24,908 nt of DNA. Source: a virus (taxonomy: Duplodnaviria; Heunggongvirae; Uroviricota; Caudoviricetes). Every line of letters begins with the position of its first letter. The stretch's first letter is position 1. The DNA lies in the IMG/VR virus record IMGVR_UViG_2579778993_000003, one strand, 5' to 3'. The translations under genes and the position numbers were made by a program. This document shows, one piece after another, positions 2,165 to 24,672 of the stretch. Below the pieces are notes generated by a model. That model was given only the letters and a program-made list of their open reading frames with translations. It searched no databases and was not told the DNA's origin.

Positions 2165-2380
2165 TTACTCTCCCCGTGCAGCCTTACGACGGTCCTCTCT
2201 GATTTTGAAATACAGGTTAGTCAGATATGTCAGCAGCCCAAACAGCAGACTCCCCAGCACGCCTATTGCCGCCCACTGAGACGGGGAAACCCTGTCCAGC
2301 AACTGCAGGAACCAGTAGCCCGTTCCCACCGCTGACGTGGTGTATGACACACCTGTTGTGATTTTTTCCATCTGGTACAT
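2165..2380 (-). CDS. Class II holin / pinholin (phage 21 S-like), 71 aa
   Basis: The track ORF is 97 aa, but the convincing start is the ATG at 2378-2380, preceded by GGGAGACGGGGT. The product [71 protein letters not shown] closely resembles the phage 21 S pinholin as I recall it (two TMDs, charged C-tail). A second in-frame ATG three codons later could give a dual-start holin/antiholin pair. Confidence 0.8.
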
Positions 2381-2530
2381 ACCCCGTCTCCCGTTATCCG
2401 GAAGCTGACAACAATAAAAAAAGCCACCAGTTAAGTACTGATGGCTCTGATAACTCATGCAGGCATCTCAGACGACCCACTGACACTACCGGTGAGTTTA
2501 ACGATACCTTCCATTTGACTGGCTCACTTT

Positions 2531-4387
2531 TTATGATGATGCTGGTGCATTTATCTCCAGCACCAGACTTTCTATCTCAACGCCATACGCTGCATTTTTG
2601 GTAATATCCGTCAGCGTCAGCGCATTCAGCCCCAGTGTCAGACTGTCTTTTATGACCTGGAATGCCGGGCCAGCCACTCCATTCAGTTTCGGAGTAACCG
2701 TGGCACTGCCGGCGGTGAACACCAGCTCCAGCGTCTGCCAGTCGTTACTGTAATTCCCGAACTCGCCCAACTTTGTGTTTCCTGCTTTCCTGTGATGCAT
2801 CAGATTCAGTTTGCCGTCTGTGGTCTGGGTGAAGAACGACATCAGGAACGGGTTACCAGTCCCGGTCATCGCCACGACGTCAGGTAACGCTACATCGGTA
2901 TACAGATAAATTCCCAGACCGAACTGGTTGTTGGTCAGTGCGCCTGACAGTCGAAACTTACAGCTCAGTCTGCCACCCCGTGTCAGCAGGGAGACTGCGT
3001 CATCCACCGGATGCATCAGGGACCAGGTTTTATTGCTCTGCTTGGTAACCTTAAACACACCATCTTCCAGCGCAACACTGCCGCCGGTGATGGTCCAGCC
3101 CTGCGCAGCAGCCTCTCCGGCTGTCGGCAGCAGGGAGACTGTACGAACGGATGTGTCACCATCAGACGGCCCCGATGGCGTGTCGCCGCCGGGCGAGGGT
3201 TTAATCTCCGGTGCGGTACCGCTGATGAAGGCGCTGGTTCGACCAACTGCGTTCAGAATAGCGGTTGCCAGGCGATCCGAAATAATGCCCCTGCGCGCCC
3301 ATGAACTGAAATGTGTCGGACGATTTGACGATACCCAATTACCATTACTACGGGATTGCGCGCCGTAATAACCTGCATCAGCAATATCCGGGTCTTCTGC
3401 CGGTAAGTTGGTGGGCGTGTTGTTGCCGTTACCGTCGGTCATGAACGGCACAAAGAAAACGTTGTCGCTCTCCCTGTTTTTGTACGCGCCGTAGACGGAG
3501 TCATACTGTGTGCCGTATGTGTTTTTCCAGTAATACGTCGTGTCGCCACAAATCCACGGTACAACTGCAGCACTGCCGCCATGGCACTGCGCCGCCAGCC
3601 CGGCAAGGTCAGCACGGAACTGCTGTACCATTGCAAGAAATGCTGCTGGCTGCTGGGCGTAACTGGCATTCGTCATATCGAATTCCCCCTGCATCCAGCA
3701 TATCGCCAGCAAAACGTTTTTCGGGTTTTTCTGCAATGCTGCCTTCGTGCGGAAAAGCAGATCCTGATATAATGGTTTACCCACACCCCAGCGTGCCGAA
3801 TCCTGGCTGGCCCCCGTGTCCGCACTGAATGTCCCCTCCGCGCCCTGGGTGAATGCCGAACCACCACGACAGCATGGTACCAGCAGGATCCCCGCATTAT
3901 TAGGGATATACGGAAGCAGTTTTTTGGCAATATGTAAGCCCTGTCCGACACAGCCGTACTGCCCTTTGCTCAGGTCAGCCCGGGGATGGTTAATCGTACT
4001 CATATCCTGAACATCATGCAGACAATGGTCAGCAGGAATGATGTCGTTAAATACGCATACTTCACCACCGGGAGTCACTGTGTTACGACGGGCCAGTTGC
4101 TTAATGCGCGGATGGGGCGCATCGTATGAATCCGGAAGCGGAAGCCCTTCACCGTAAGCCATGGCATTGGACTGCCCGGCCAGTACGATGACGTAGTACC
4201 ACTCCGGCTCAGTTGCACCACTGACGACCACATCACCTTCTGCTGCAATCGCCTGCATCAGGGTATAAGGGGTTATGGCCACCGGACTACCAAACGGCTG
4301 CCAGCCCTCTTTCAGTTTATGTGTCAGCTTTTCCGCAAGATCTGACGGCGACGCCGCCCTGACAACATCATAGTGTTTAAATGCCAT
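2531..4387 (-). CDS. Prophage sialate O-acetylesterase-like protein (NanS-p-like; SGNH/SASA hydrolase with extra N- and C-terminal domains), 618 aa
   Basis: Contains the esterase motif LAGQSNAMAYGEG (GQSN catalytic serine block) after an N-terminal ~60-aa domain (MAFKHYDVVRAASPSDLAEKL...), plus a long C-terminal beta-rich region. It sits between the tRNA/stx slot and the holin, the position of NanS-p genes in Stx-type prophages. Confidence 0.7.
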   Translation of the reverse strand: MAFKHYDVVRAASPSDLAEKLTHKLKEGWQPFGSPVAITPYTLMQAIAAEGDVVVSGATEPEWYYVIVLAGQSNAMAYGEGLPLPDSYDAPHPRIKQLARRNTVTPGGEVCVFNDIIPADHCLHDVQDMSTINHPRADLSKGQYGCVGQGLHIAKKLLPYIPNNAGILLVPCCRGGSAFTQGAEGTFSADTGASQDSARWGVGKPLYQDLLFRTKAALQKNPKNVLLAICWMQGEFDMTNASYAQQPAAFLAMVQQFRADLAGLAAQCHGGSAAVVPWICGDTTYYWKNTYGTQYDSVYGAYKNRESDNVFFVPFMTDGNGNNTPTNLPAEDPDIADAGYYGAQSRSNGNWVSSNRPTHFSSWARRGIISDRLATAILNAVGRTSAFISGTAPEIKPSPGGDTPSGPSDGDTSVRTVSLLPTAGEAAAQGWTITGGSVALEDGVFKVTKQSNKTWSLMHPVDDAVSLLTRGGRLSCKFRLSGALTNNQFGLGIYLYTDVALPDVVAMTGTGNPFLMSFFTQTTDGKLNLMHHRKAGNTKLGEFGNYSNDWQTLELVFTAGSATVTPKLNGVAGPAFQVIKDSLTLGLNALTLTDITKNAAYGVEIESLVLEINAPASS

Positions 4388-4580
4388 GAATCCTCCCGGC
4401 CGGGATAATATTGTGAGTAAAATGAGGAGCGGGCTGAAGTCCGGAAGTTACAGGACAATGGCAGAAGAGAGACAACAGCCCGCAATACGAAAAAGGCCGC
4501 GCTATTGCGCAGAGTGATTACTGTCGGATATTATTCGCCAGCTGAAATATTACTTCACGTTTTATTGTTTATTCCTTGCC

Positions 4581-4609
4581 GCCCGCGTCTCCCAGCGCGG
4601 GCTTTTTTT
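4581..4609 (+). terminator. Plus-strand intrinsic terminator
   Basis: Stem gcccgcg (4581-4587) pairs with cgcgggc (4596-4602) around an 8-nt loop, followed by T7 (4603-4609). The T-tract is only on the plus strand, implying a plus-strand transcript ends here, antisense to the late operon. Confidence 0.55.
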
Positions 4610-4616
4610 GCCCACA

Positions 4617-4850
4617 AGAAAACCCCTCCGGAGAGGGGCTAAAGCCGCGTATCTGTATCATCATGCACATGGTGCCGGGTGCCTCCCGGTGAGTTCAGCC
4701 CGGTGCCACTAAACCCGCGTCATTCTCGTTTTGATAATCAGAGATTATACCGTCACCAGTCGCCCCTCCGCTCAGGGGGATTCACCATGCGAAATTTTTT
4801 TAACAAATGCCCAGTCTGACAGGCAACTGTCAACTTACTGAATTGTGAGC
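4617..4850. repeat. Direct repeat unit A (~230 bp), degenerate copy of unit B, rich in palindromic hairpins
   Basis: Shares ordered conserved blocks with 5105-5318: aaaa(c/g)ccctccggagaggggct, gcatggtgccgggtgcctcccggtga, cccctccgc.cagggggattcaccatgc, ttttaacaaa and cagtcaac...ctgaattgtgag. The first block is a perfect 6-bp hairpin (CCCCTC cgga GAGGGG, 4623-4638) preceded by an A-run, so it is a minus-strand terminator. Confidence 0.6.
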
Positions 4851-4875
4851 AACATAGCATTTAACGGGGAACCTG

Positions 4876-4903
4876 TTTTCTGCAGTAAAAAGGCCCACCG
4901 GAG
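4876..4903 (-). terminator. Minus-strand intrinsic terminator between the two repeat units
   Basis: Hairpin GGCCCA (4882-4887) / TGGGCC (4898-4903) around a 10-nt loop, with a plus-strand A-run at 4877-4881 giving a T-tract on the minus-strand transcript. Confidence 0.5.
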
Positions 4904-5104
4904 CGGATGGGCCTGGAAGGATAGCGGTCATGTGATGCCGGTTTCCCGGTAACTCAGCACCGGTATCTGAGTCAACGTTTTCTCTACTGGGTCATTTCCG
5001 ATACGCCCTGCCTGCTGACAGGCTTTCATCACATCTGAAAATATAGCACCCTGACTGATACTGTAGTACCTAAGGTTCCAGAAACTGTGATGTATCCGGC
5101 ACAG

Positions 5105-5318
5105 AAAAGCCCCTCCGGAGAGGGGCTGGAGAGTGGCGCTATGTGCCATTGCATGGTGCCGGGTGCCTCCCGGTGAATTCAGTACCAGCACCTGAATCCG
5201 CGATTATCCCATATACCTACTCGCTGATTGCCCCTCCGCACAGGGGGATTCACCATGCCAGTTTCTTTTAACAAACTCCCCGCAAACCAGACAACAGTCA
5301 ACCGCCTGAATTGTGAGA
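5105..5318. repeat. Direct repeat unit B (~215 bp), degenerate copy of unit A
   Basis: Same conserved blocks as unit A, including the CCCCTC cgga GAGGGG hairpin (5110-5125) and the 8-bp inverted pair gcatggtg / caccatgc bracketing a variable ~110-nt core. Confidence 0.6.
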
Positions 5319-5323
5319 CATTT

Positions 5324-5347
5324 AAAAAAAAGCCCGCAAAAGCGAGC
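5324..5347 (-). terminator. Minus-strand terminator-like hairpin directly after the tRNA cluster
   Basis: Plus-strand A8 (5324-5331) then gcccgc aaaa gcgagc (5332-5347); on the minus strand this is an imperfect 6-bp hairpin followed by T8. Confidence 0.45.
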
Positions 5348-5362
5348 CAGTGAAAATAAGTG

Positions 5363-5439
5363 TGGCGCGTTGTACTGGATTCGAACCAGTGACCGATTGC
5401 TTAGAAGGCAATTGCTCTGTCCGGCTGAGCTAACAACGC
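5363..5439 (-). tRNA. tRNA-Arg (anticodon UCU)
   Basis: Manual cloverleaf on the minus strand: acceptor GCGTTGT/ACAACGC, D-stem GCTC/GAGC, anticodon stem ATTGC/GCAAT with loop CTTCTAA, T-arm ACTGG-TTCGAAT-CCAGT, discriminator G and encoded CCA. All stems perfect; 77 nt. Confidence 0.9.
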
Positions 5440-5452
5440 AGGATACAGATAA

Positions 5453-5529
5453 TGGACCGCCTTCGGGGACCCGAACTCCGCGCAACCAGCTTCGAAGGCT
5501 GGCGCTCTTTCCTGATGAGCTAATGGCGG
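5453..5529 (-). tRNA. Putative tRNA-Arg (anticodon UCG), slightly degenerate
   Basis: Cloverleaf fits with D-stem GCTC/GAGC, anticodon stem CCAGC/GCTGG with loop CTTCGAA, and encoded CCA. There is one mismatch in the acceptor stem (A-A), one in the T-stem (A-C), and an atypical T-loop TTCGGGT, so it may be a diverged or pseudo tRNA. Confidence 0.55.
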
Positions 5530-5536
5530 TATGTGA

Positions 5537-5612
5537 TGGTGGCCCTTGCTGGATTTGAACCAGCGACCTGGCGATTATGAGTCGCTCGCTCTCACCACTG
5601 AGCTAAAGGGCC
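5537..5612 (-). tRNA. tRNA with CAU anticodon (Met by anticodon; resembles the Ile2/lysidine-type ileX/ileZ class)
   Basis: Minus-strand sequence GGCCCTTTAGCTCAGTGGTGAGAGCGAGCGACTCATAATCGCCAGGTCGCTGGTTCAAATCCAGCAAGGGCCACCA folds as a 76-nt cloverleaf with one A-C mismatch in the anticodon stem. It closely resembles E. coli ileX as I recall it. Confidence 0.85.
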
Positions 5613-5661
5613 GGGAGCAGAATAATAATGGTGCGTAATTAATTCTGCAATCTCATCCGTT

Positions 5662-6711
5662 TCAAACGATTAAATCCTGAACTTCCCTGACTGTCTGCTC
5701 AAAACGTCCGGTCTCCAGCTCAACACCAATCGCACGACGCCCCAGTGCCATCGCCGCTTTTACCGTTGAACCCGACCCCATGAAAAAATCCGCAACCAGA
5801 TCACCAGGACGGCTACTTGCGCTGATTATCTGCTGCAGCATTTCTGCCGGTTTTTCGCACGGATGTTTCCCGGGATAGAACTGCACCGGTTTATGCGTCC
5901 ACACATCGGTATACGGCACCTGCACCGTCACGCCAAAATACCGCCGCAGATGTTTATATTCACTCAGCAGCTCCGCATACTGCCGGTTCAGTGAGGTATA
6001 CGTATCCACCAGCTGGTGGTGGAGCTTTTCCAGTTCACCACGCCGATGCTTCTCTTCTGCCACCCGGGCAAACAGCGCCTGTAATTTCAGATAATCGCTT
6101 TCATTCGGTAGCTGCCACTGACTGGCACTGAACCAGTGCGACACCATGTTTTTCTTTCCTGTGGCATCTGCAATCTGTTTTGCCGTTATCCCCAAGGCCG
6201 CGCGCGCATCACGAAAGTAAGAAATCAGCGGGGCCATCACATGCTGTTTCAGTGCACTGCCCTTCGCCGCATACCCGGCATCTTTCGGACGATACGGCCC
6301 CTGATAATGTTCCGCGAACAGAATGCGCTCTGTGGCGGGGAAATACGCCCGCAGGCTTTCCTTGTTGCACCCGTTCCAGCGTCCGGACGGCTTCGCCCAG
6401 ATAATATGGTTCAGCACACTGAAGCGTTCACGCATCATGATTTCGATATCAGATGCCAGGCGATGACCACAGAACAGGTAAAGACTTCCGGCAGGTTTCA
6501 GCACCCGCCAGAACTGCGCCAGACACTGGTCCAGCCATTTCAGGTAATCATCGTCGCCCTTCCACTGGTTATCCCAGCCCTCAGGCTTCACTTTAAAGTA
6601 CGGCGGGTCCGTGACTATCAGGTCAACAGAATTTTCGGGTAACGACCGGATAAATTCCAGGCAGTCGGCGTTGATTAACTCACAACTGGATATTTTTACA
6701 GTATTAAGCAT
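5662..6711 (-). CDS. Orphan DNA methyltransferase (amino-MTase, N6-adenine or N4-cytosine; motif order DPPY then FxGxG)
   Basis: 349 aa with catalytic motif IVTDPPYF near the N-terminus and the AdoMet-binding motif FFMGSGST near the C-terminus. No restriction endonuclease gene is adjacent. ATG at 6709-6711. Confidence 0.85.
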   Translation of the reverse strand: MLNTVKISSCELINADCLEFIRSLPENSVDLIVTDPPYFKVKPEGWDNQWKGDDDYLKWLDQCLAQFWRVLKPAGSLYLFCGHRLASDIEIMMRERFSVLNHIIWAKPSGRWNGCNKESLRAYFPATERILFAEHYQGPYRPKDAGYAAKGSALKQHVMAPLISYFRDARAALGITAKQIADATGKKNMVSHWFSASQWQLPNESDYLKLQALFARVAEEKHRRGELEKLHHQLVDTYTSLNRQYAELLSEYKHLRRYFGVTVQVPYTDVWTHKPVQFYPGKHPCEKPAEMLQQIISASSRPGDLVADFFMGSGSTVKAAMALGRRAIGVELETGRFEQTVREVQDLIV

Positions 6712-7285: not shown

Positions 7286-8107
7286 CTATCGCGTTACCCT
7301 CTTTAACTGCCGCTCCGCCCATGCCTCTTCAATGTCAAACCGAACCACCAACGTATCGTAAAAGCGTTTCACTGATTTTTTCCACGTATCAAGCGTGATA
7401 GCACTCGTCACTTTGCGTATGGCATTAAATGCCTCCGTTGATGGTAGTCTTTCACAGCCACGACCACCACAACGCTGGCAGTCTCTGATAACAGGCATAC
7501 CACGTTTTACCGACTCTTCACGATGAATGGCAACACCACGCCCACGGCAGTCTTTACAGGCAGTGGAAATCTCCCCCTTCCCTTTACATTCAGGACAAGA
7601 AACTTTCACCACCTCCCGAATTTTTTTCCATTCTTCCCAGTAAGACGGATACACACCTTTCGTACACTTTGCCCATACTGGCGGCTTGCCATCCGGATAC
7701 TGAACCTTGTTTGTAAAAACTTCGCCTTCAATAAATTTTTCCCCTCGGCAACAGGGGCACTGCTTTTTACTCGCTGCGCTGCGGGCATAATCCTCAAAAG
7801 CGTACGAAGCCATAATGCGCATCACTACCGGTTTTATTTCTGCCGGAAGTTTTCTCAACGCCGCCACACGATCGCACCGACTGAGTGCATAATCTGCCAG
7901 TAATTCTGTTGCCCGCGCCCTGTCATTCATACTGATGCCCATTTTCCCCAGGAACGCAGAAAACCCCATCTCAGCCCGATTCTGTGTCATGCCCTGCGCG
8001 GCCATCACATCAGTGATACTCAGCGCATCTTTCGACGTTGAGGCCGATGCATCAGTCAGGCCGGGGGATTTTGGGGAGTAGTATTTCGGTAAATCTTCCA
8101 GTTTCAT
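7286..8107 (-). CDS. Putative late-gene antiterminator Q (Cys-rich, zinc-finger type), 273 aa
   Basis: Directly downstream of rusA with a 4-bp ATGA overlap, and followed by a promoter plus terminator pair. Contains repeated CxxC motifs (CPCCRGEK, CPECKGKGE, CKDCRGRG, CQRCGGRGCE). Family assignment rests on synteny and motifs. Confidence 0.6.
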   Translation of the reverse strand: MKLEDLPKYYSPKSPGLTDASASTSKDALSITDVMAAQGMTQNRAEMGFSAFLGKMGISMNDRARATELLADYALSRCDRVAALRKLPAEIKPVVMRIMASYAFEDYARSAASKKQCPCCRGEKFIEGEVFTNKVQYPDGKPPVWAKCTKGVYPSYWEEWKKIREVVKVSCPECKGKGEISTACKDCRGRGVAIHREESVKRGMPVIRDCQRCGGRGCERLPSTEAFNAIRKVTSAITLDTWKKSVKRFYDTLVVRFDIEEAWAERQLKRVTR

Positions 8108-8484
8108 TTTTTGACCTGCTCTTCATGCATTATGGGGTAAATCTTCACCCCCAGACGTCCACCAGATACTGGCTGACCACGAACGATATTGATTTCATCA
8201 AACTGCTCATCGTCCATTAGCAACCCCGCATGCGTCAGCGCATCCAGCGGCGCTTTCAGAATATTGTCCAGATCACGGCGGCGCTTATCCGGTGGTTCTG
8301 CAATAATTTTTATTGCCAACCTTCCGGACAGGCTTAATTTCAGCCGCTGCTGGCGAACAATAAGCGCCACTGCCCGGCGATAACGCTCCCCGGCTTTTGA
8401 TACAAAATATGTGCTGCCACGACGACGCCAGTAAGTGTTCACCGTTGGCGGGTAAGGCAAAACAAATTCTATGCGTTCAGTCAT
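8104..8484 (-). CDS. rusA: RusA-family Holliday junction resolvase
   Basis: 126 aa; the segments LPYPPTVNTYWRRRG and DKRRRDLDNILKAPLDALTHAGLLMDDEQ match the RusA fold and catalytic Asp cluster. Typical position in a lambdoid nin region just upstream of Q. Confidence 0.85.
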   Translation of the reverse strand: MTERIEFVLPYPPTVNTYWRRRGSTYFVSKAGERYRRAVALIVRQQRLKLSLSGRLAIKIIAEPPDKRRRDLDNILKAPLDALTHAGLLMDDEQFDEINIVRGQPVSGGRLGVKIYPIMHEEQVKK

Positions 8485-10231: not shown

Positions 10232-12496
10232 TTATACGGAAACTGGCACACGAGCAGGCAATGGATAGTGAGCCCAGTTATTAGCATTTAAAGCTCTTAC
10301 GCCATCAGCATAAACTTGTGTTTTTCCATCTAATGATTTTAAAGTTACTACAATAGTTACAGGTAAAGGCTCCATTAAGGCCGGTTCATTCGCTCTCAAC
10401 GTTGTTTTAGCTTGAAGAGCCCAGTTACCCGAAGTAATTCCTTTATTAAATGCCTTGCGATGAATTTTTACTGGTGACCACTTTCCACCATGCTCAATTT
10501 GAGCTCTCTCATATCCAGATTGACCGTTTTCTCCTTCCATAGGTACTTTTCCTTTTATAGTATTATTCTCAATTAAGCCAAAACTTAGCTCTACGTTCGC
10601 GCGAACATATTCACTGCCGGCATTAGGGTTCAGTGGTGGTGCATATGCAGCAGTAATTACAATCTCACCTTTAAATTTTCCATTTTGAATAAGTGCCGAT
10701 GGTATGGGATAGTTTTCCTTTCTCCACCTCACCCCAGGAACCAAGAATGTTTGGAAAATCAGAGTAAACCTATCATCACTATCATATAAGGTCTCAATAA
10801 CCTCATTAGGAATTCCCGCTCCCAAATAGCGTCTTTCACTTGGCGAGTAATCAGGAGAAGATAATTGAGCGGAATGAATTAATAATGCTTTAATCAATGA
10901 TGGTGAAACATTAAAGTCTGAATTAGTGGCTATTCTCTGCCATGTATGCGCAGCTAAACTTGCCACAATTGGAGCAGCAAAACTAGTACCAAAATTAGAG
11001 CAAAGCCTATTATCTGGCCCTACGACCTTTAAACTGCTTGCTCCTACATTCCAAGGTCTATGAACCCCACCGCCAGCATGGATTATATCTGGCTTTGGAG
11101 TAAATACAGGCCCAGGGCCACGACGAGTATATGGTGTCGGTGTTCCAATTTCACTTAAAGCATCATTAGCTTCCATATGAGAAACTGAACCAACTGTTAG
11201 TGCTCGGACTGACTCTCCAGGAGAGGAAATTAAATCAGCACCTCCAAGCGGATCAGGATTTGGCCATGTACGTATAGGTTCATCTACATAATTACCTGCA
11301 GCAACTACAAACAAAATACCAAATTTATCGCTGAGCCGATCTAACTCCATCGCAAAATCACTAAACATCTGCTCATTACATGGTCCGCCTCCCAAAGATA
11401 AATTCCAGACTTTTATATCTGGTCTTTTATTTACAGCATCTGCTAGCCTCAGAATTAAATCTGATATATAAGATCCATTTTCATCTAAAGCACAAACATC
11501 ATGGATTTTAGATTTTGTATCAGGAATCCATGGATGATTGTCATTTAAAAAATGAGCGCCTGATATCAATGAAGACACCATAGTCCCATGTTCATAACTC
11601 GTATCAGGAGGAATTACGTATGTTTCCCTACTCACTACCCAAGGAGTAATTGTTGCCGCGATGGGGCTTACCCCAGTGTCAAATACAGCAACAATGGGTA
11701 ATTCTTCTGATGGTACGGGAAAGCTATTTGTTTCAATGCCAACAGAATCACTTACACTAACCGGGAATGCTGAATATTTTGGTTCTGGAATTAACGTTCT
11801 TATACCCGGGTAATCAATGAGAATGTCTAATATATATCTATCATTTGGGGATAAATCCATTATCCTTAATAAGGGAAGACCACATTTTGGTCTAATCTCA
11901 TCATATTTAACTCCGTGTTGTTCTAATATAGAAATAACGTTTTCATAGTTGTTGTAAGTTGCATCTTCACCTGTGTACTCAAATAGTCGTACAAGGATGT
12001 TTGATGATTCAAACAAACCATCAGTGCCTCCTGGAACCTTCCTATTCTCATCCCAAGGTTCAATGCGCTCAATCGCGCTTAGATTAGCCAAAATCGCTTT
12101 AATATTCCGATGTAAAATGACTGACTCTAATACGTCAAAACAGCCGGCATGAGCAGCAACCAACATTTCATCTATTTTGGCATGACCGGCATTTTGCAAT
12201 CCAGCCTCTTGAGCAATTTTGTTCGGCCTATGCGTTTTGGCTATTCCCTGGTCTCTTAATTTGAAAACCAAAGTACCCAAGCTTCCAGGGTACTCTGAAA
12301 GTTTGGATTCTAAATAATGTTTACTGGTTGTTAAATTTCTTACTAGCCCTTGTCTATATTCGGCTGTTACATCAACCAATACCTTTGCCCCACCGCCAGC
12401 GTTTACTATTGCACCCAAGTCACTACTGGAAAAAGGGATTCTTAACATTGGGTTTGTAACTTTTGCGTTACTAAACTGTGTACCCCTTCTGCTCAT
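10232..12496 (-). CDS. Subtilisin-like serine protease (peptidase S8) with extra N- and C-terminal domains, 754 aa; protease component of an IetAS-like two-gene system
   Basis: Catalytic residues in subtilisin order: Asp in VAVFDTGVS, His in YEHGTMVSS, oxyanion Asn in VVAAGNY, Ser in GTSFAAPIVAS. ATG at 12494-12496 with a GGAG/AGGAG SD inside the 3' end of the upstream ATPase gene (26-bp overlap). A+T-rich relative to neighbouring prophage genes. Confidence 0.9.
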   Translation of the reverse strand: MSRRGTQFSNAKVTNPMLRIPFSSSDLGAIVNAGGGAKVLVDVTAEYRQGLVRNLTTSKHYLESKLSEYPGSLGTLVFKLRDQGIAKTHRPNKIAQEAGLQNAGHAKIDEMLVAAHAGCFDVLESVILHRNIKAILANLSAIERIEPWDENRKVPGGTDGLFESSNILVRLFEYTGEDATYNNYENVISILEQHGVKYDEIRPKCGLPLLRIMDLSPNDRYILDILIDYPGIRTLIPEPKYSAFPVSVSDSVGIETNSFPVPSEELPIVAVFDTGVSPIAATITPWVVSRETYVIPPDTSYEHGTMVSSLISGAHFLNDNHPWIPDTKSKIHDVCALDENGSYISDLILRLADAVNKRPDIKVWNLSLGGGPCNEQMFSDFAMELDRLSDKFGILFVVAAGNYVDEPIRTWPNPDPLGGADLISSPGESVRALTVGSVSHMEANDALSEIGTPTPYTRRGPGPVFTPKPDIIHAGGGVHRPWNVGASSLKVVGPDNRLCSNFGTSFAAPIVASLAAHTWQRIATNSDFNVSPSLIKALLIHSAQLSSPDYSPSERRYLGAGIPNEVIETLYDSDDRFTLIFQTFLVPGVRWRKENYPIPSALIQNGKFKGEIVITAAYAPPLNPNAGSEYVRANVELSFGLIENNTIKGKVPMEGENGQSGYERAQIEHGGKWSPVKIHRKAFNKGITSGNWALQAKTTLRANEPALMEPLPVTIVVTLKSLDGKTQVYADGVRALNANNWAHYPLPARVPVSV

Positions 12497-13625
12497 ATGC
12501 TCCTGACTCCTTCAGAATGTTTGAAATTACTCTTGATGTAAGTTTGTACAAATTAGCAAGAACTCTGATAGAAAATAATTTTTTATCTTTAGAACGTAAC
12601 CAACGAATTTCATCTTCGTAAGTGCTTAAATTTACACCTTCCATAAGCGATTGCGCAAGATACAAACGCCTATACAATTTATGGTGATTTATCACACTTG
12701 CACCTTCAATAACTGCATCCCTACGTGCATCCAAGCTCACCTGTTCAATTATTGCTCCGGATAATCCCTCCGATTTTCTTGATAAATCACTTAAATCTAG
12801 ATCGCTACATATCATATTCTTTAAACGATTTTTCCAAATTAACTCTCTCTGATGTATGTCAGGCAGAGGCATTGGAATTCTGAAGCTAAATCGCCTCCAG
12901 ATTGCAGGATCCAGAAGTTGCTCATGGTTAGTTGAGGCAATAATTACCGTATCCTCTGATGCCGCATCCATATTCTGCAATAGTGAAATGACAACTCGCT
13001 GAAGCTCACCTATATCTCTCTCATTACCTCTTGCTCCAGCTAAAGCATCAAATTCGTCTAAAAAAAGCACTGATGGCCTCTGCATTACATAATCGAAAAC
13101 CTGTCTAAGATTTTTGCTGGTTTGTCCCAATAAACTACTAATCAAAGTATCGCAACGCACTGTAAGAAGTGGAAAATCTAAGCGGGTAGCGATGTACTTA
13201 GATAACATAGTCTTACCTGTTCCTGGCTTTCCATACACGAGCATACGACTCGGCAATGCTGCATCAGCTTTAACAAACTCATCATAACGTTGAACATTAG
13301 TGATAAACTCTTCAACACGGGTACTGATTGCTGCAGGCAGAAAAATCTCTGAACTGTCTAATTTAGGATAACTGACATCAACAGTGTTGAGTCGACTATC
13401 AATATCTACCGGTAATGAGCCCAGAGATATCCCACCTCCAGCCCTTTGAGCTCCTGCCAACGCCTGGGGAGCTCTAAGCAACCTTTCTCTTATCATTCTG
13501 GCTTGCTTGACCTCCCCTTTTTGTTCGAGCTTATCTGCCAGCAACCCAGCATAATTACTAGCCATCGAAGCATTTGCCTTTGTTGCACCTTCAATGATTT
13601 TTAACACTTCTGATAAATAATCCAT
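12471..13625 (-). CDS. Classic AAA-family ATPase, 384 aa; ATPase component of an IetAS-like two-gene system
   Basis: Walker A GKPGTGKT, Walker B VLFLDEFD, and a second-region-of-homology-like segment ASTNHEQLLDPAIWRRFSF with sensor Asn and Arg fingers. ATG at 13623-13625 preceded by GGGAG with a 6-nt spacer, after an AT-rich ~190-bp leader. Confidence 0.9.
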   Translation of the reverse strand: MDYLSEVLKIIEGATKANASMASNYAGLLADKLEQKGEVKQARMIRERLLRAPQALAGAQRAGGGISLGSLPVDIDSRLNTVDVSYPKLDSSEIFLPAAISTRVEEFITNVQRYDEFVKADAALPSRMLVYGKPGTGKTMLSKYIATRLDFPLLTVRCDTLISSLLGQTSKNLRQVFDYVMQRPSVLFLDEFDALAGARGNERDIGELQRVVISLLQNMDAASEDTVIIASTNHEQLLDPAIWRRFSFRIPMPLPDIHQRELIWKNRLKNMICSDLDLSDLSRKSEGLSGAIIEQVSLDARRDAVIEGASVINHHKLYRRLYLAQSLMEGVNLSTYEDEIRWLRSKDKKLFSIRVLANLYKLTSRVISNILKESGAYEQKGYTV

Positions 13626-19099: not shown

Positions 19100-19460
19100 T
19101 CTCCACGGGTCAGGTGGAGTGCGTGCGCCGGACACGGGTGAACATCCGGCACTGACAGTTTACTGAAAGGATATGTCCCTGAAAAGTCAGGGCATAACGC
19201 GAAAGCGCACGGCGAAATTGGTCTCTCTGTACGGTGTCGTTAAATTTAGTTCGACCGTGCGCTTCCGGTTGTGGCAATCCGCGAAATGGTGCGGCGGTAA
19301 GTATGGCGGGGGTATTCCTTCCCCCGTTGAGGACACCGGGTTGTCAGGTTGACCATACGCTTAAGTGACAACCCCGCTGCAACGCCCTCTGTTATCAATT
19401 TTCTGGTGACGTTTGGCGGTATCAGTTTTACTCCGTGACTGCTCTGCCGCCCTTTTTAAA
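19100..19460. other. GC-rich, hairpin-dense non-coding region (candidate structured RNA or DNA site)
   Basis: No convincing ORF. Several perfect stems: GCCGGA/TCCGGC nested inside GTCAG/CTGAC (19111-19156), CCCTGA aaag TCAGGG (~19177-19194), GCGCACGG...CCGTGCGC enclosing ~45 nt (~19205-19262), CGGGGG tattcctt CCCCCG (~19307-19326), and GGGTTGTCA-19 nt-TGACAACCC (~19338-19374). Confidence 0.3.
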
Positions 19461-22631: not shown

Positions 22632-22880
22632 ATGGCAAGACTTATTCTGCTCACTGAGTGGGCAAAAGAGGAATTCAGTGAACCGGTCCCAACTCCGAGT
22701 ACGTTAAGTAAATACGCTAAAGCCGGAATGATATTTCCTCTCCCCAAAAAAGTTGGAAGACGCTGGCGAGTGGATCCGCAAGCTCGCTTTGTCGGAATGG
22801 TAAACAAGCCGGAGGTGATCGCCACAGATCACCCTGCTTTGAAGAGGATACTGGAAGATGGCGCGCCCGCGAAAATATAA
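22632..22880 (+). CDS. Excisionase / AlpA-like small DNA-binding protein
   Basis: 82 aa, basic, immediately upstream of and overlapping (23 bp) the integrase gene, the typical xis-int arrangement. Family assignment is by position and size. Confidence 0.55.
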   Translation: MARLILLTEWAKEEFSEPVPTPSTLSKYAKAGMIFPLPKKVGRRWRVDPQARFVGMVNKPEVIATDHPALKRILEDGAPAKI

Positions 22881-23988
22881 AACCAATGTTCCGGGATTAT
22901 CTCCGTATTTTGACAAAAGAAATAACAAAGTTTACTGGCGTTACAGGCATCCCATAACAGGCAAAAATCACGGTCTCGGCAGTATTGACCAGAAACTGGC
23001 AGAAACTATTGCAGCAGAAGCGAACAGCCGTCTTGCCCGGCAGCAAATGGAACAAATGCTCAGTCTGCAGGAGAAAATTATTAGTGATACCGGCGGTTCA
23101 TCAACCGTTACCATTTTTCTGAATAATTACAGAAAAATTCAACAGGAAAGATATGAAAACGGCGAGATCAAACTCAACACGCTGAAACAGAAAGCGGCTC
23201 CTCTCAGGGTATTTGATGAACGTTTTGGCACCAGACCGTTAGATGCCATAACCGTAAAAGATGTGGTATCAGTACTGGAAGAGTACAAGGCCAGAGGACA
23301 TAACAGAATGGGACAAATTTTCAGGAAGGTACTGATCGATGTTTTCCGGGAAGCTCAGCAAACGGGCGATGTCCCGCCAGGCTTTAACCCTGCAGAATCG
23401 GCAAAAAAACCGCAGGTGCGGATATCAAGACAGCGACTGACTTTTGATGAGTGGATGATGATTTATAACGCAGCGGAAAAGGATGGTTACTTTTTACAGC
23501 GCGGTATGCTGCTGGCACTGATGACAGGCCAGCGCCTTTCAGATATTTGCAAAATGCAATTTTCGGATATCCGGGATGGTTATCTTCATGTCGAACAGCA
23601 AAAAACAGGAACCCGGATTGCCATCCCTCTGGCTCTGCGTTGCGATAAATTAAATCTCACCCTGGATGATGTGGTGTCATCCTGCCGCGATTGCGTTCTT
23701 AGTCCGTGGCTATTGCACCACCATCACGCGAAAGGGACAGCTAAGCGCGGCGGGATGGTTAAGCCAGCAACATTAACCGTTGCATTTAAAAAAGCCCGGG
23801 ATTCTGTGGATTACAACTGGCGTGCTAATGGCACCCCTCCCTCTTTCCATGAGCAGAGATCTTTATCAGAGCGATTGTTCAGAGAGCAGGGGGTTGATAC
23901 CAAAATTTTGCTAGGCCATTCGAATCAAAAAATGACCGATATTTACAACGACGCACGCGGTAAGGAATGGAAAAAACTGGTCATTTGA
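22858..23988 (+). CDS. Tyrosine site-specific integrase
   Basis: 376 aa with tyrosine-recombinase boxes: TGQRLSDI (box I Arg), HEQRSL (His-x-x-Arg) and LLGHSNQKMTDIYN (box II with catalytic Tyr). Adjacent to the prophage/host junction beside ompW. Confidence 0.9.
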   Translation: MARPRKYKTNVPGLSPYFDKRNNKVYWRYRHPITGKNHGLGSIDQKLAETIAAEANSRLARQQMEQMLSLQEKIISDTGGSSTVTIFLNNYRKIQQERYENGEIKLNTLKQKAAPLRVFDERFGTRPLDAITVKDVVSVLEEYKARGHNRMGQIFRKVLIDVFREAQQTGDVPPGFNPAESAKKPQVRISRQRLTFDEWMMIYNAAEKDGYFLQRGMLLALMTGQRLSDICKMQFSDIRDGYLHVEQQKTGTRIAIPLALRCDKLNLTLDDVVSSCRDCVLSPWLLHHHHAKGTAKRGGMVKPATLTVAFKKARDSVDYNWRANGTPPSFHEQRSLSERLFREQGVDTKILLGHSNQKMTDIYNDARGKEWKKLVI

Positions 23989-24033: not shown

Positions 24034-24672
24034 TTAAAAACGATATCCTGCGGAGAACATAAACACCCACGGATCCAGTCGTACCGAGTCTTTTACGGTA
24101 GTAACACCAGATTTGTACTTAGCCGTGGTATCGATATCCATGTACCACACTGACATGTTAACCAACCAGTCACGGTTAATCAGATAATCAACCCCCACCT
24201 GCCCGGCAGCTCCCCAGGAATCTTTCAGACTGAGATCGGAAAGCCCTGCCTCTTTGCCATGATCGTTAAATCCATTATCAAAGAAGGTGGTGTAGTTAAT
24301 ACCTGCCCCAACGTAAGGACGGAATTTGCTGCTGGCATCACCAAAATACCACTGCGCCATCAGTGTTGGTGGCAGATGATGAACGGTTGCAATATCGCCG
24401 GTCGCCCGGGTGCCGATTTTATGGCGGAACGGCGTCGCTGCCAGTAATTCCACACCAATGTTGTCGGTCGCCATATAAGTAAACGTAAGGCCCAGTTGCG
24501 TGTTATTGGTCACGCTGAATCCACCCAGACTTCCTAACGTACCACCAGCACCTTCTGTTGGACGTACGGTTGCAGAACCTGCACGCATAAAAAATTCGCC
24601 TGCTTCATGCGCAAAGGCACTGCCAGAGAGAAGAGTTGTTACTGCCAAAGCCGCCACTGTTAATTTTTTCAT
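24034..24672 (-). CDS. ompW: Outer membrane protein W (8-stranded beta-barrel)
   Basis: 212 aa; signal peptide MKKLTVAALAVTTLLSGSAFA followed by HEAGEFFMRAGSATVRPTEG... and a C-terminal ...WVFMFSAGYRF beta-barrel signature. Recognised as E. coli OmpW from memory. Confidence 0.9.
   Translation of the reverse strand: MKKLTVAALAVTTLLSGSAFAHEAGEFFMRAGSATVRPTEGAGGTLGSLGGFSVTNNTQLGLTFTYMATDNIGVELLAATPFRHKIGTRATGDIATVHHLPPTLMAQWYFGDASSKFRPYVGAGINYTTFFDNGFNDHGKEAGLSDLSLKDSWGAAGQVGVDYLINRDWLVNMSVWYMDIDTTAKYKSGVTTVKDSVRLDPWVFMFSAGYRF

Follow-up and report, generated by a model that had tools for sequence, protein, structure and literature searches.

What are the repeated, terminator-bearing modules that lie in the late operon of this prophage, between its tRNA genes and its nanS-like gene? 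RefSeq leaves the interval blank or fills it with spurious 'hypothetical proteins', and an earlier reading of the bare sequence (the original prediction) had offered regulatory RNAs, remnants of cargo exchange and recombination substrates as possible identities. Pfam scans identified the window, i.e., the whole 24,908-nucleotide stretch of viral DNA that was analysed, as a lambdoid prophage with its late operon on the minus strand, in the order RusA (8104-8484), antiterminator Q, a DNA methylase (5662-6711), the tRNA genes, the array of modules and a NanS-like esterase. Of the late genes, that of the esterase comes first after the array; it is followed by a P21-type holin (2165-2458), a DUF1327 protein and lysozyme, so that the gene order matches the one known from Stx phages, Q - tRNA - cargo - nanS - lysis. 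We consider it probable that the array consists of three tandem, independently transcribed small-RNA genes of the STnc100/EcOnc27/PasD superfamily, here called units B, M and A in their order on the minus strand, which occupy a prophage moron slot between the tRNA genes and nanS. The coordinates of the features are collected in Table 1.

Table 1. Predicted features of the small-RNA array and its neighbours (window coordinates)
Feature	Position	Strand	Basis or remark
Unit B, predicted STnc100-family sRNA gene	5103..5317	-	Rfam RF02076, motif coordinates, fold
Unit B, boundary motif CTCACAAT	5317-5310	-	
Unit B, -35 TTGTCT	5294-5289	-	
Unit B, extended -10 TGTTAAAAG	5273-5265	-	
Unit B, predicted RNA	~5258 to ~5101	-	~158 nt
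Unit B, P1	5258-5251 with 5158-5151	-	
Unit B, P2; P4; P5	5247-5231; 5197-5177; 5173-5159	-	
Unit B, predicted long-range pairing AUCAGC with GCUGGU	5228-5223 with 5189-5184	-	inside P4 loop
Unit B, linker (putative seed AAUGGCACAUAGCGCCACUCUCC)	5150-5128	-	
Unit B, predicted terminator	5127-5103	-	terminator-like site call
Unit M, predicted diverged third copy	4885..5048	-	Rfam STnc100 below threshold, fold
Unit M, extended -10 TGCTATATT	5048-5040	-	
Unit M, predicted RNA	~5035 to ~4885	-	~150 nt
Unit M, P1 AUGUGAUG with CAUCACAU	5034-5027 with 4937-4930	-	
Unit M, P2; P4; P5 (CCGG-GAAA-CCGG)	within 5023-5010; 4972-4952; 4949-4938	-	
Unit M, predicted long-range pairing UAUCGG with CCGGUG	5003-4998 with 4963-4958	-	
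Unit M, linker (putative seed GACCGCUAUCCUUCC)	4929-4915	-	
Unit M, predicted terminator	4914-4885	-	
Unit A, predicted STnc100-family sRNA gene	4616..4849	-	Rfam RF02076, motif coordinates, fold
Unit A, boundary motif CTCACAAT	4849-4842	-	
Unit A, -35 TTGCCT	4826-4821	-	
Unit A, extended -10 TGTTAAAAA	4805-4797	-	
Unit A, predicted RNA	~4790 to ~4614	-	~177 nt
Unit A, P1	4790-4783 with 4674-4667	-	
Unit A, P2; P4; P5	4779-4763; 4714-4693; 4689-4675	-	
Unit A, predicted long-range pairing CUGGUG with CACCGG	4759-4754 with 4705-4700	-	
Unit A, linker (putative seed GCAUGAUGAUACAGAUACGCGGCUUU)	4666-4641	-	
Unit A, predicted terminator	4640-4616	-	terminator-like site call
Convergent sRNA candidate abutting unit A ('dyad' partner)	4556..4609	+	terminator and EPEC likeness
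Predicted intrinsic terminator after tRNA cluster, upstream edge of cargo slot	5331..5348	-	
Terminator-like hairpin between unit A and nanS-like gene	4497..4512	-	
Three phage tRNA genes, ileZ-argN-argO type	5363..5612	-	RefSeq: tRNA-Ile, tRNA-Arg, tRNA-Arg
NanS-like sialate O-acetylesterase (DUF1737 + SASA + DUF6645)	2531..4387	-	Pfam scan
Antiterminator Q (PF03589)	7286..8107	-	upstream of methylase, tRNAs and array

The identity of the array follows in the first place from its two strongest members. The original prediction saw two degenerate direct repeats that share ordered conserved blocks, and both observations were confirmed: units A and B align end to end with a column identity of 81% and a single 15-nt indel, and three blocks (88 nt at 80%, 31 nt at 97% and 28 nt at 89%) keep their order. 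In an Rfam scan, both units are full-length minus-strand matches to STnc100 (RF02076), unit A at 4610-4819 with 161 bits (E = 1e-36) and unit B at 5097-5287 with 136.3 bits (E = 3e-30); they cover model positions 1-206 of 206, and their scores, about three times the gathering score of 47 bits, place both in the family. Relatives were handled with nhmmer and the Rfam model. Similarity confined to short palindromes, which the original prediction set against itself, was not what we found, since the homology spans the whole unit. REP- or MITE-like palindromes were rejected on the same ground, together with the promoter-like element and terminator of each unit; copies of STnc100 are associated with the late regions of prophages or with particular leaders, and every copy has its own promoter and terminator. 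The other finding that it set against itself, a correspondence to known annotated genes, does hold, the units corresponding to RF02076, EcOnc27/sRNA103 and the relatives of PasD. Thus, the array belongs to an already described small-RNA family, and because of this there is little new in the finding of regulatory RNAs in the stx slot as such. What is added here is the tandem triple array, M as a paralogue that scores below threshold and lacks annotation, and a refined structure that includes a pseudoknot-type pairing. Among the identities offered originally, regulatory RNAs are the best reading, supported by the non-coding, terminator-ended character of the modules on the minus (late-operon) strand.

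The palindromes within the units take their meaning from the direction of reading. The CCCCTC-CGGA-GAGGGG hairpins, at 4623-4638 in unit A and 5110-5125 in unit B, are followed by T-runs on the minus strand and are terminator-like, as the original prediction had it; each unit was also said to begin with its hairpin, and this part has to be reversed, because the RNA is read on the minus strand and the hairpin is therefore the 3' end of the unit. The 8-bp long-range inverted pair exists in both units, formed in unit B by GCATGGTG (5151-5158) with CACCATGC (5251-5258) and in unit A by ACATGGTG (4667-4674) with CACCATGC (4783-4790), the latter giving seven Watson-Crick pairs and one G-U pair in RNA. 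When the minus strands of A, B and M were folded singly, the MFE folds had a common topology of P1, P2, P4, P5, a free linker and a terminator, and the fold of unit B reproduced P1, P2, P4 and P5 together with the terminator. The single-sequence folding z-scores are modest (-1.4, -1.95 and -2.65, the last being that of unit M).

Stronger evidence for the fold comes from comparison across species. Homologues gathered by an exact 23-mer from one-genome-per-species data comprised 88 stretches from Kosakonia, Enterobacter, Klebsiella, Raoultella, Citrobacter, Leclercia, Trabulsiella and other genera. In an alignment of 49 sequences from many genera of Enterobacteriaceae, 80.8% of the cells were paired, compared with 72.8% after shuffling, and none of 500 shuffles reached the observed value. 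The covariation score of the same 49 sequences was 0.239 against 0.119 in shuffles (again 0/500), and sliding the partners gave 0.066-0.125; the covariance analysis suggested in the original prediction thus came out above both the shuffled and the slid controls. Because this cross-genus set was collected by an exact 23-mer, the invariance of P5 and of the inner pairs of P1 within it is a product of its construction. In P2, pairs 13-28, 14-27 and 15-26 are formed in all 82 of 82 sequences, with G-C, U-A and A-U swaps. A register of C13-G28, C14-G27 and C15-G26 with a conserved C-N mismatch accommodates these variants, whereas the Rfam register breaks in the swap variants; we therefore favour a register of this first hairpin that is shifted relative to the Rfam consensus, as judged from the aligned sequences.

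The comparison also suggests a further helix beyond the Rfam line, in which 6-7 nt after P2 would pair with the loop of P4, as AAUGAUC with GAUCAUU in PasD2. At least six contiguous pairs were found in 78% of cognate sequences but in 17% of non-cognate combinations, over 59 sequence combinations. On fixed MAFFT columns only 49% of the cells of this helix are paired, a low value that is explained by register shifts of 1-2 nt between sequences, and the helix was accordingly judged by the register-tolerant cognate versus non-cognate test in place of the fixed-column one; with wide windows, an initial form of the register-tolerant test separated the two classes poorly (6.7 vs 5.7). The pseudoknot-type pairing has good support in an alignment that is not structure-aware. 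Together with the corrected P2 register, it gives this family, which pathogenic E. coli carry in abundance, a structure that can be put to the test.

The transcription signals around the core point in the same direction. The 5' end of PasD2 has been mapped to the G of GCAUGGUG, 8 nt past TTGACT-N18-TAAAAA, and the putative promoters of units A and B (TTGCCT or TTGTCT, N18, and TAAAAA or TAAAAG preceded by TGT) have the same spacing; the -10 region of unit M reads TGcTATATT. Many homologues from other genera have a clean TTGACx-N16/17-TAxAAT promoter that stops about 7 nt short of P1, and behind the core come a variable linker and a terminator. The promoter scan called no minus-strand promoter, having missed the units because their -10 hexamers end in A or G, and the promoter call consequently rests on homology with the PasD2 start and on the clean promoters found elsewhere. 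On this basis, each unit looks like a self-contained gene, in which a weak promoter with an extended -10 would place the transcription start on the opening base of the 8-bp closing helix. As the promoters stand just before P1, with the linker and terminator behind the core, the core would form the 5'-terminal domain of a primary transcript, and the units of the window would be autonomous promoter-RNA-terminator cassettes. The original prediction held that Q antitermination would be required to read through these modules, which is not supported, since each has a promoter-like element of its own placed as at the PasD2 5' end; for the same reason, the units are best read as autonomous genes that would be expressed in the lysogen.

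Terminators are nevertheless so dense in this region that they invite an explanation of their own. Between 4300 and 5700, there are 10 terminator-like sites against 1.4 expected from shuffles, and five minus-strand hairpins followed by a U-run (5348-5331, 5127-5108, 4914-4891, 4640-4621 and 4512-4497) occupy about 900 bp of the stretch that separates Q/pR' from the lysis cassette. The units may accordingly be cis-acting terminator or insulator cassettes that stop entry into nanS and the lysis genes until Q acts, with the RNAs as by-products, and the location of the array inside the late operon would suit such a role. We consider this unlikely: a terminator needs about 30 nt and not a conserved, covarying core of 110-125 nt, each unit appears to have its own promoter aligned to the mapped PasD2 start, the STnc100 family also occurs outside late operons, and homologues accumulate as Hfq-bound RNAs in uninduced cells.

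The relation of the array to stx bears on another explanation. A Stx2a phage shares two segments with the window: positions 4280-4848, which comprise the beginning of nanS, the spacer and unit A together with its promoter block (87% identity), and positions 5325-5700, which contain the terminator of the tRNA cluster and the tRNA genes themselves (91%). In the phage, stx2AB lies between these two segments. The original assignment of the position to the stx slot is thus borne out, stx2AB standing where the window has M and B. The suggestion that the units might flank the stx insertion point did not survive this comparison, because Stx phages have a single copy, which lies downstream of stx2B, and lack one on the upstream side; unit A is 87% identical to that copy in the Stx2a phage and 76% identical in phage 24B, in which the site homologous to 5331..5348 is annotated as a terminator upstream of stx. 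In 318 of 5426 complete E. coli genomes, matches extend over at least 80% of the full 1.26-kb interval; E. coli ATCC 11775 / DSM 30083 carries the array at 99.2% identity, and the strong-weak-strong arrangement also occurs in phages PhiR5_2 and vB_EcoS-640R1. Copy number in the slot ranges from 1 to 3 in E. coli phages, the stx-negative phi296 having one unit; in a Leclercia prophage, four copies precede the lysis genes, clusters of 4-5 copies are found in other genera, and cores and linkers are mosaic among phages.

Such variability might be taken to mean that the units are recombination scars or substrates, that is, leftovers of cargo exchange or stretches of homology for unequal crossing-over by which stx-like cargo is swapped. 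In addition to the variable copy number and the mosaic cores and linkers, the exact replacement of M and B by stx2AB, from the tRNA terminator to the boundary block of unit A, speaks for this, as does the occurrence of CTCACAAT at the starts of units B and A and once more in the nanS leader, all three matches being at module starts. However, three matches are not a significant number (7 of 100 shuffles reach 3), for which reason CTCACAAT was rejected as a module-boundary motif, and recombination leaves the covariation, the promoters and terminators and the expression of homologues unexplained. It is likely a consequence of the repeats rather than an alternative identity. Recombination, which the original prediction also proposed, is therefore plausible as a side effect, seen in variable copy number and mosaicism, but it is not demonstrated as a function, and as an account of what the units are we find it quite improbable.

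Copies outside the slot raise the question of a role in cis. In Klebsiella and Kosakonia, an STnc100 core lies 93-194 nt upstream of kdgM-pectate lyase, and in Raoultella and Klebsiella one lies about 45 nt upstream of a small lipoprotein ORF; these chromosomal copies could have a cis-acting role. Generalised to the array, this would make the pseudoknotted core a riboswitch-like sensor, i.e., a 5' domain that binds a ligand or a protein and thereby controls the neighbouring terminator or an ORF behind it, and both the position of the core upstream of these genes and the layout of promoter, covarying pseudoknotted fold, linker and terminator fit the idea. If it were true, the three units would be a serial signal-dependent gate on read-through into nanS and the lysis genes, and the same domain would control kdgM-pectate lyase in Klebsiella and Kosakonia. 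We nonetheless regard it as very improbable, because no conserved antiterminator alternative was seen and the varied gene contexts hint at no ligand. Moreover, the P2-to-terminator complementarity of the window (pairs I1 and I8) is lost in other genera, whose terminators differ, no Rfam riboswitch matched at E <= 1, and the RIL-seq chimeras of PasD point to pairing in trans.

Unit M deserves separate treatment as the diverged member of the array. The original prediction noticed an additional minus-strand terminator between the two repeats; it is present, at 4885-4914, where it is the 3' end of this third copy. In a permissive Rfam scan, unit M matches STnc100 at 4885-5058 with 30.1 bits, under the gathering score, and with E-values of 6e-4 in the 3.4-kb scan and 4e-5 in a local scan. 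Its hairpins come in the same order as those of A and B, its MFE fold has the same topology, and the closing helix is kept through G-C to A-U changes, AUGUGAUG/CAUCACAU replacing GCAUGGUG/CACCAUGC. The unit is present in 673 of 5426 complete E. coli genomes (about 12%), where it is never annotated, and occurs as two alleles of about 86% mutual identity. These differ mainly in P2, by seven substitutions there, all of which preserve pairing (CCUGUC/GGCAGG vs UCUGCC/GGCGGA), and since the substitutions keep the P2 pairs and are mostly non-synonymous, the constraint appears to act on RNA rather than on protein. The statement that the region has no coding potential holds for A and B, which have no equivalent ORF, and fails for M, which contains a 33-codon ORF (5029-4928) on the minus strand that is intact in both alleles. 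That unit M encodes the corresponding 33-aa peptide MKACQQAGRIGNDPVEKTLTQIPVLSYRETGIT is hardly credible, however, and the ORF was rejected as a gene, because it has no Shine-Dalgarno sequence upstream and no Pfam match, is missing from A and B, and has 5 non-synonymous as against 2 synonymous differences between the alleles, which cluster in P2 and leave its base pairing intact. A dedicated model would recover this M-type paralogue group, which escapes the Rfam threshold, and the annotation of a slot associated with virulence cargo would gain three or four sRNA genes.

If the units are STnc100-family sRNA genes, as we prefer to read them, a weak sigma-70 promoter with an extended -10 would start each transcript at the first base of P1, and the RNA would consist of a compact core of about 110-125 nt (P2, a variable region, P4 and P5), a single-stranded linker of 15-26 nt, and a GC-rich terminator with a U-tail. 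By homology with PasD and EcOnc27, the RNAs would be made in the lysogen and would bind Hfq via the terminator and U-tail. By analogy with PasD, they may pair with target mRNAs through the unit-specific linkers, which are the probable seeds, and because the linkers differ between the units, the three paralogues would have different targets. In PasD, the seed UGUGAG lies in the linker upstream of the terminator, within the 3' ~50 nt. As the linkers of A, M and B lack this hexamer, the assignment of the seed to the linker is only an analogy. The conserved, 5'-terminally paired core would most likely serve as a stabilising or scaffold domain, and the terminators may insulate nanS and the lysis genes from the unit promoters until Q-modified polymerase reads through. 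A pseudoknotted 5' domain of 110-125 nt is atypical for an Hfq sRNA.

The array also has a convergent neighbour. The plus-strand element that abuts unit A has a predicted terminator (4581-4602) followed by a T-run and a possible extended -10 TGAAATATT from 4543. It is near-identical to the EPEC RIL-seq sRNA candidate E2348C_1409.E2348C_1408.IGR (Fig. S5, PMC8550237) and is conserved in a Stx2a phage and phi296, and phage 24B has AsxR at the equivalent place and strand (88 bits). Identity of the element itself with AsxR or AgvB (RF02703 / RF02702) was rejected, there being no Rfam match at E <= 1 in 2300-5700. We regard it as a candidate sRNA and as the putative dyad partner of unit A in the window. 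PasA, looked for between nanS and the holin gene, was rejected as well, as the 72-nt intergenic gap leaves no room for it and nothing was found.

The array can finally be set beside systems that are already known. STnc100 (RF02076) was first reported as a Salmonella sRNA candidate and later in many prophages; EDL933 has 11 transcribed copies, mostly with low ribosome coverage and one confirmed by Northern blot, and the RNA has been detected in outer-membrane vesicles. The array resembles this family in its prophage late-region context and in the multiple copies per genome, and differs in the three tandem copies found here, in the sub-threshold score of M, and in the shifted P2 register and the added pseudoknot-type pairing. 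EcOnc27/sRNA103 is the copy next to stx2, an Hfq-bound sRNA identified by Northern blot and Hfq-CRAC (Tree et al. 2014; review PMC7873438). It is one half of a 'dyad' whose other member is AsxR; at least eight Sakai prophages have dyads of this kind, placed after the late promoter and ahead of the lysis genes. Variants of the copy next to stx2 are statistically associated with haemolytic uraemic syndrome (HUS). Unit A is like EcOnc27 in being homologous to the copy downstream of stx2B and in being faced by a convergent plus-strand RNA candidate ending in a terminator; unlike that dyad, there is no stx here, and the plus-strand partner is the EPEC / Stx2a-phage allele and not AsxR or AgvB.

PasD offers the closest view of the RNA itself. 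PasD2 of EPEC E2348/69 is a 172-nt RNA (NC_011601, 741157-741328), and PasD1/2 have been characterised by Northern blot, Hfq-dependent stability and RIL-seq detection (Pearl Mizrahi et al. 2021; Zhu, Shabalina and Storz 2026 preprint), the chimeric reads of RIL-seq mapping to the 3' ~50 nt. According to the 2026 preprint, PasD and STnc100 share an ancestor, and PasD2 matches the Rfam STnc100 model at 41 bits. The units share with PasD the layout, the start at P1, the combination of P2, P4 and long-range pairing, and the place between Q and a sialate esterase, whereas PasD has no P5 hairpin. A blastn comparison of window positions 2400-5700 with the PasD2 locus aligned only the esterase gene, so the relation to PasD is one at the level of the Rfam model and of structure.

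Lambdoid morons, in the concept of Hendrix and colleagues, are promoter-gene-terminator cassettes inserted in late operons. Like them, the units appear to be autonomous promoter/terminator modules between Q/pR' and the lysis genes, and they are interchangeable with stx2AB; unlike them, the cargo of this array would be RNA rather than protein.

The three tandem STnc100-family sRNA genes of the late operon (units B, M and A) are enclosed as a whole by a perfect 13-nt inverted repeat, GCGGGCTTTTTTT / AAAAAAAGCCCGC (4597-4609 and 5325-5337), whose arms come from two terminators, one belonging to the plus-strand candidate RNA beside unit A and the other to the tRNA cluster. The motif CTCACAAT is found only three times in the window, always on the minus strand (Table), and the homology with the Stx2a phage ends at the copy with which unit A starts. 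The number of copies is not significant by itself, as at least three were obtained in 7 of 100 shuffles. CUCACA is also the reported target motif of PasD, the EPEC sRNA relative of STnc100.

Multi-copy arrangements were found in other Enterobacteriaceae as well, since Superficieibacter, Enterobacter and Leclercia carry four to five STnc100-like cores grouped within a few kb (stretches L027, L081, L019, L041 and L079). In L079, four copies lie between a GNAT acetyltransferase gene on one side and holin, lysozyme and Rz genes on the other, and in L027 an IS3-family transposase adjoins the copies. The core was also found outside prophages, in Klebsiella michiganensis, Kosakonia and further stretches, where it sits upstream of ORFs or an operon (Table); this suggests that the STnc100 core can also serve as an mRNA leader.

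Table. Features of the prophage and STnc100 cores in other bacterial stretches
Feature	Position	Strand	Remark
CTCACAAT copy	5310-5317	-	start of unit B
CTCACAAT copy	4842-4849	-	start of unit A
CTCACAAT copy	4410-4417	-	nanS leader
Convergent sRNA candidate, terminator-ended	4556-4609	+	abuts unit A
Anti-phage defence pair: IetA (AAA ATPase, 384 aa) + IetS (subtilase, 754 aa)	10232-13625	-	PADLOC
DicF sRNA, full-length	19401-19452	+	Rfam RF00039, 76.7 bits; early region of prophage
Lambda-type integrase	22858-23988	+	
ompW	24034-24672	-	after integrase
STnc100 core, Klebsiella michiganensis / Kosakonia	L033 1845-1969, L010 813-937		93-194 nt upstream of KdgM porin + periplasmic pectate lyase operon
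STnc100 core	L009, L075		~45 nt upstream of 74-aa lipoprotein ORF
STnc100 core	L012, L017		upstream of 93-96-aa ORF

Elsewhere in the prophage, the defence pair was matched with E-values of 9e-143 (IetA) and 6e-300 (IetS), and the integrase followed by ompW probably indicates where the prophage ends and is flanked by the chromosome. The tRNA gene at 5537-5612 (-) was called Met(CAT) by ARAGORN, whereas the identical gene is tRNA-Ile in RefSeq; it is of the ileZ type with a CAU anticodon, which is presumably modified to lysidine.

The plus-strand candidate beside unit A is near-identical to the EPEC RIL-seq candidate E2348C_1409.E2348C_1408.IGR, for which CUUGCG has been proposed as the seed (PMC8550237). 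It is also carried by the Stx2a phage and phi296. In phage 24B, the anti-sRNA AsxR occupies this site.
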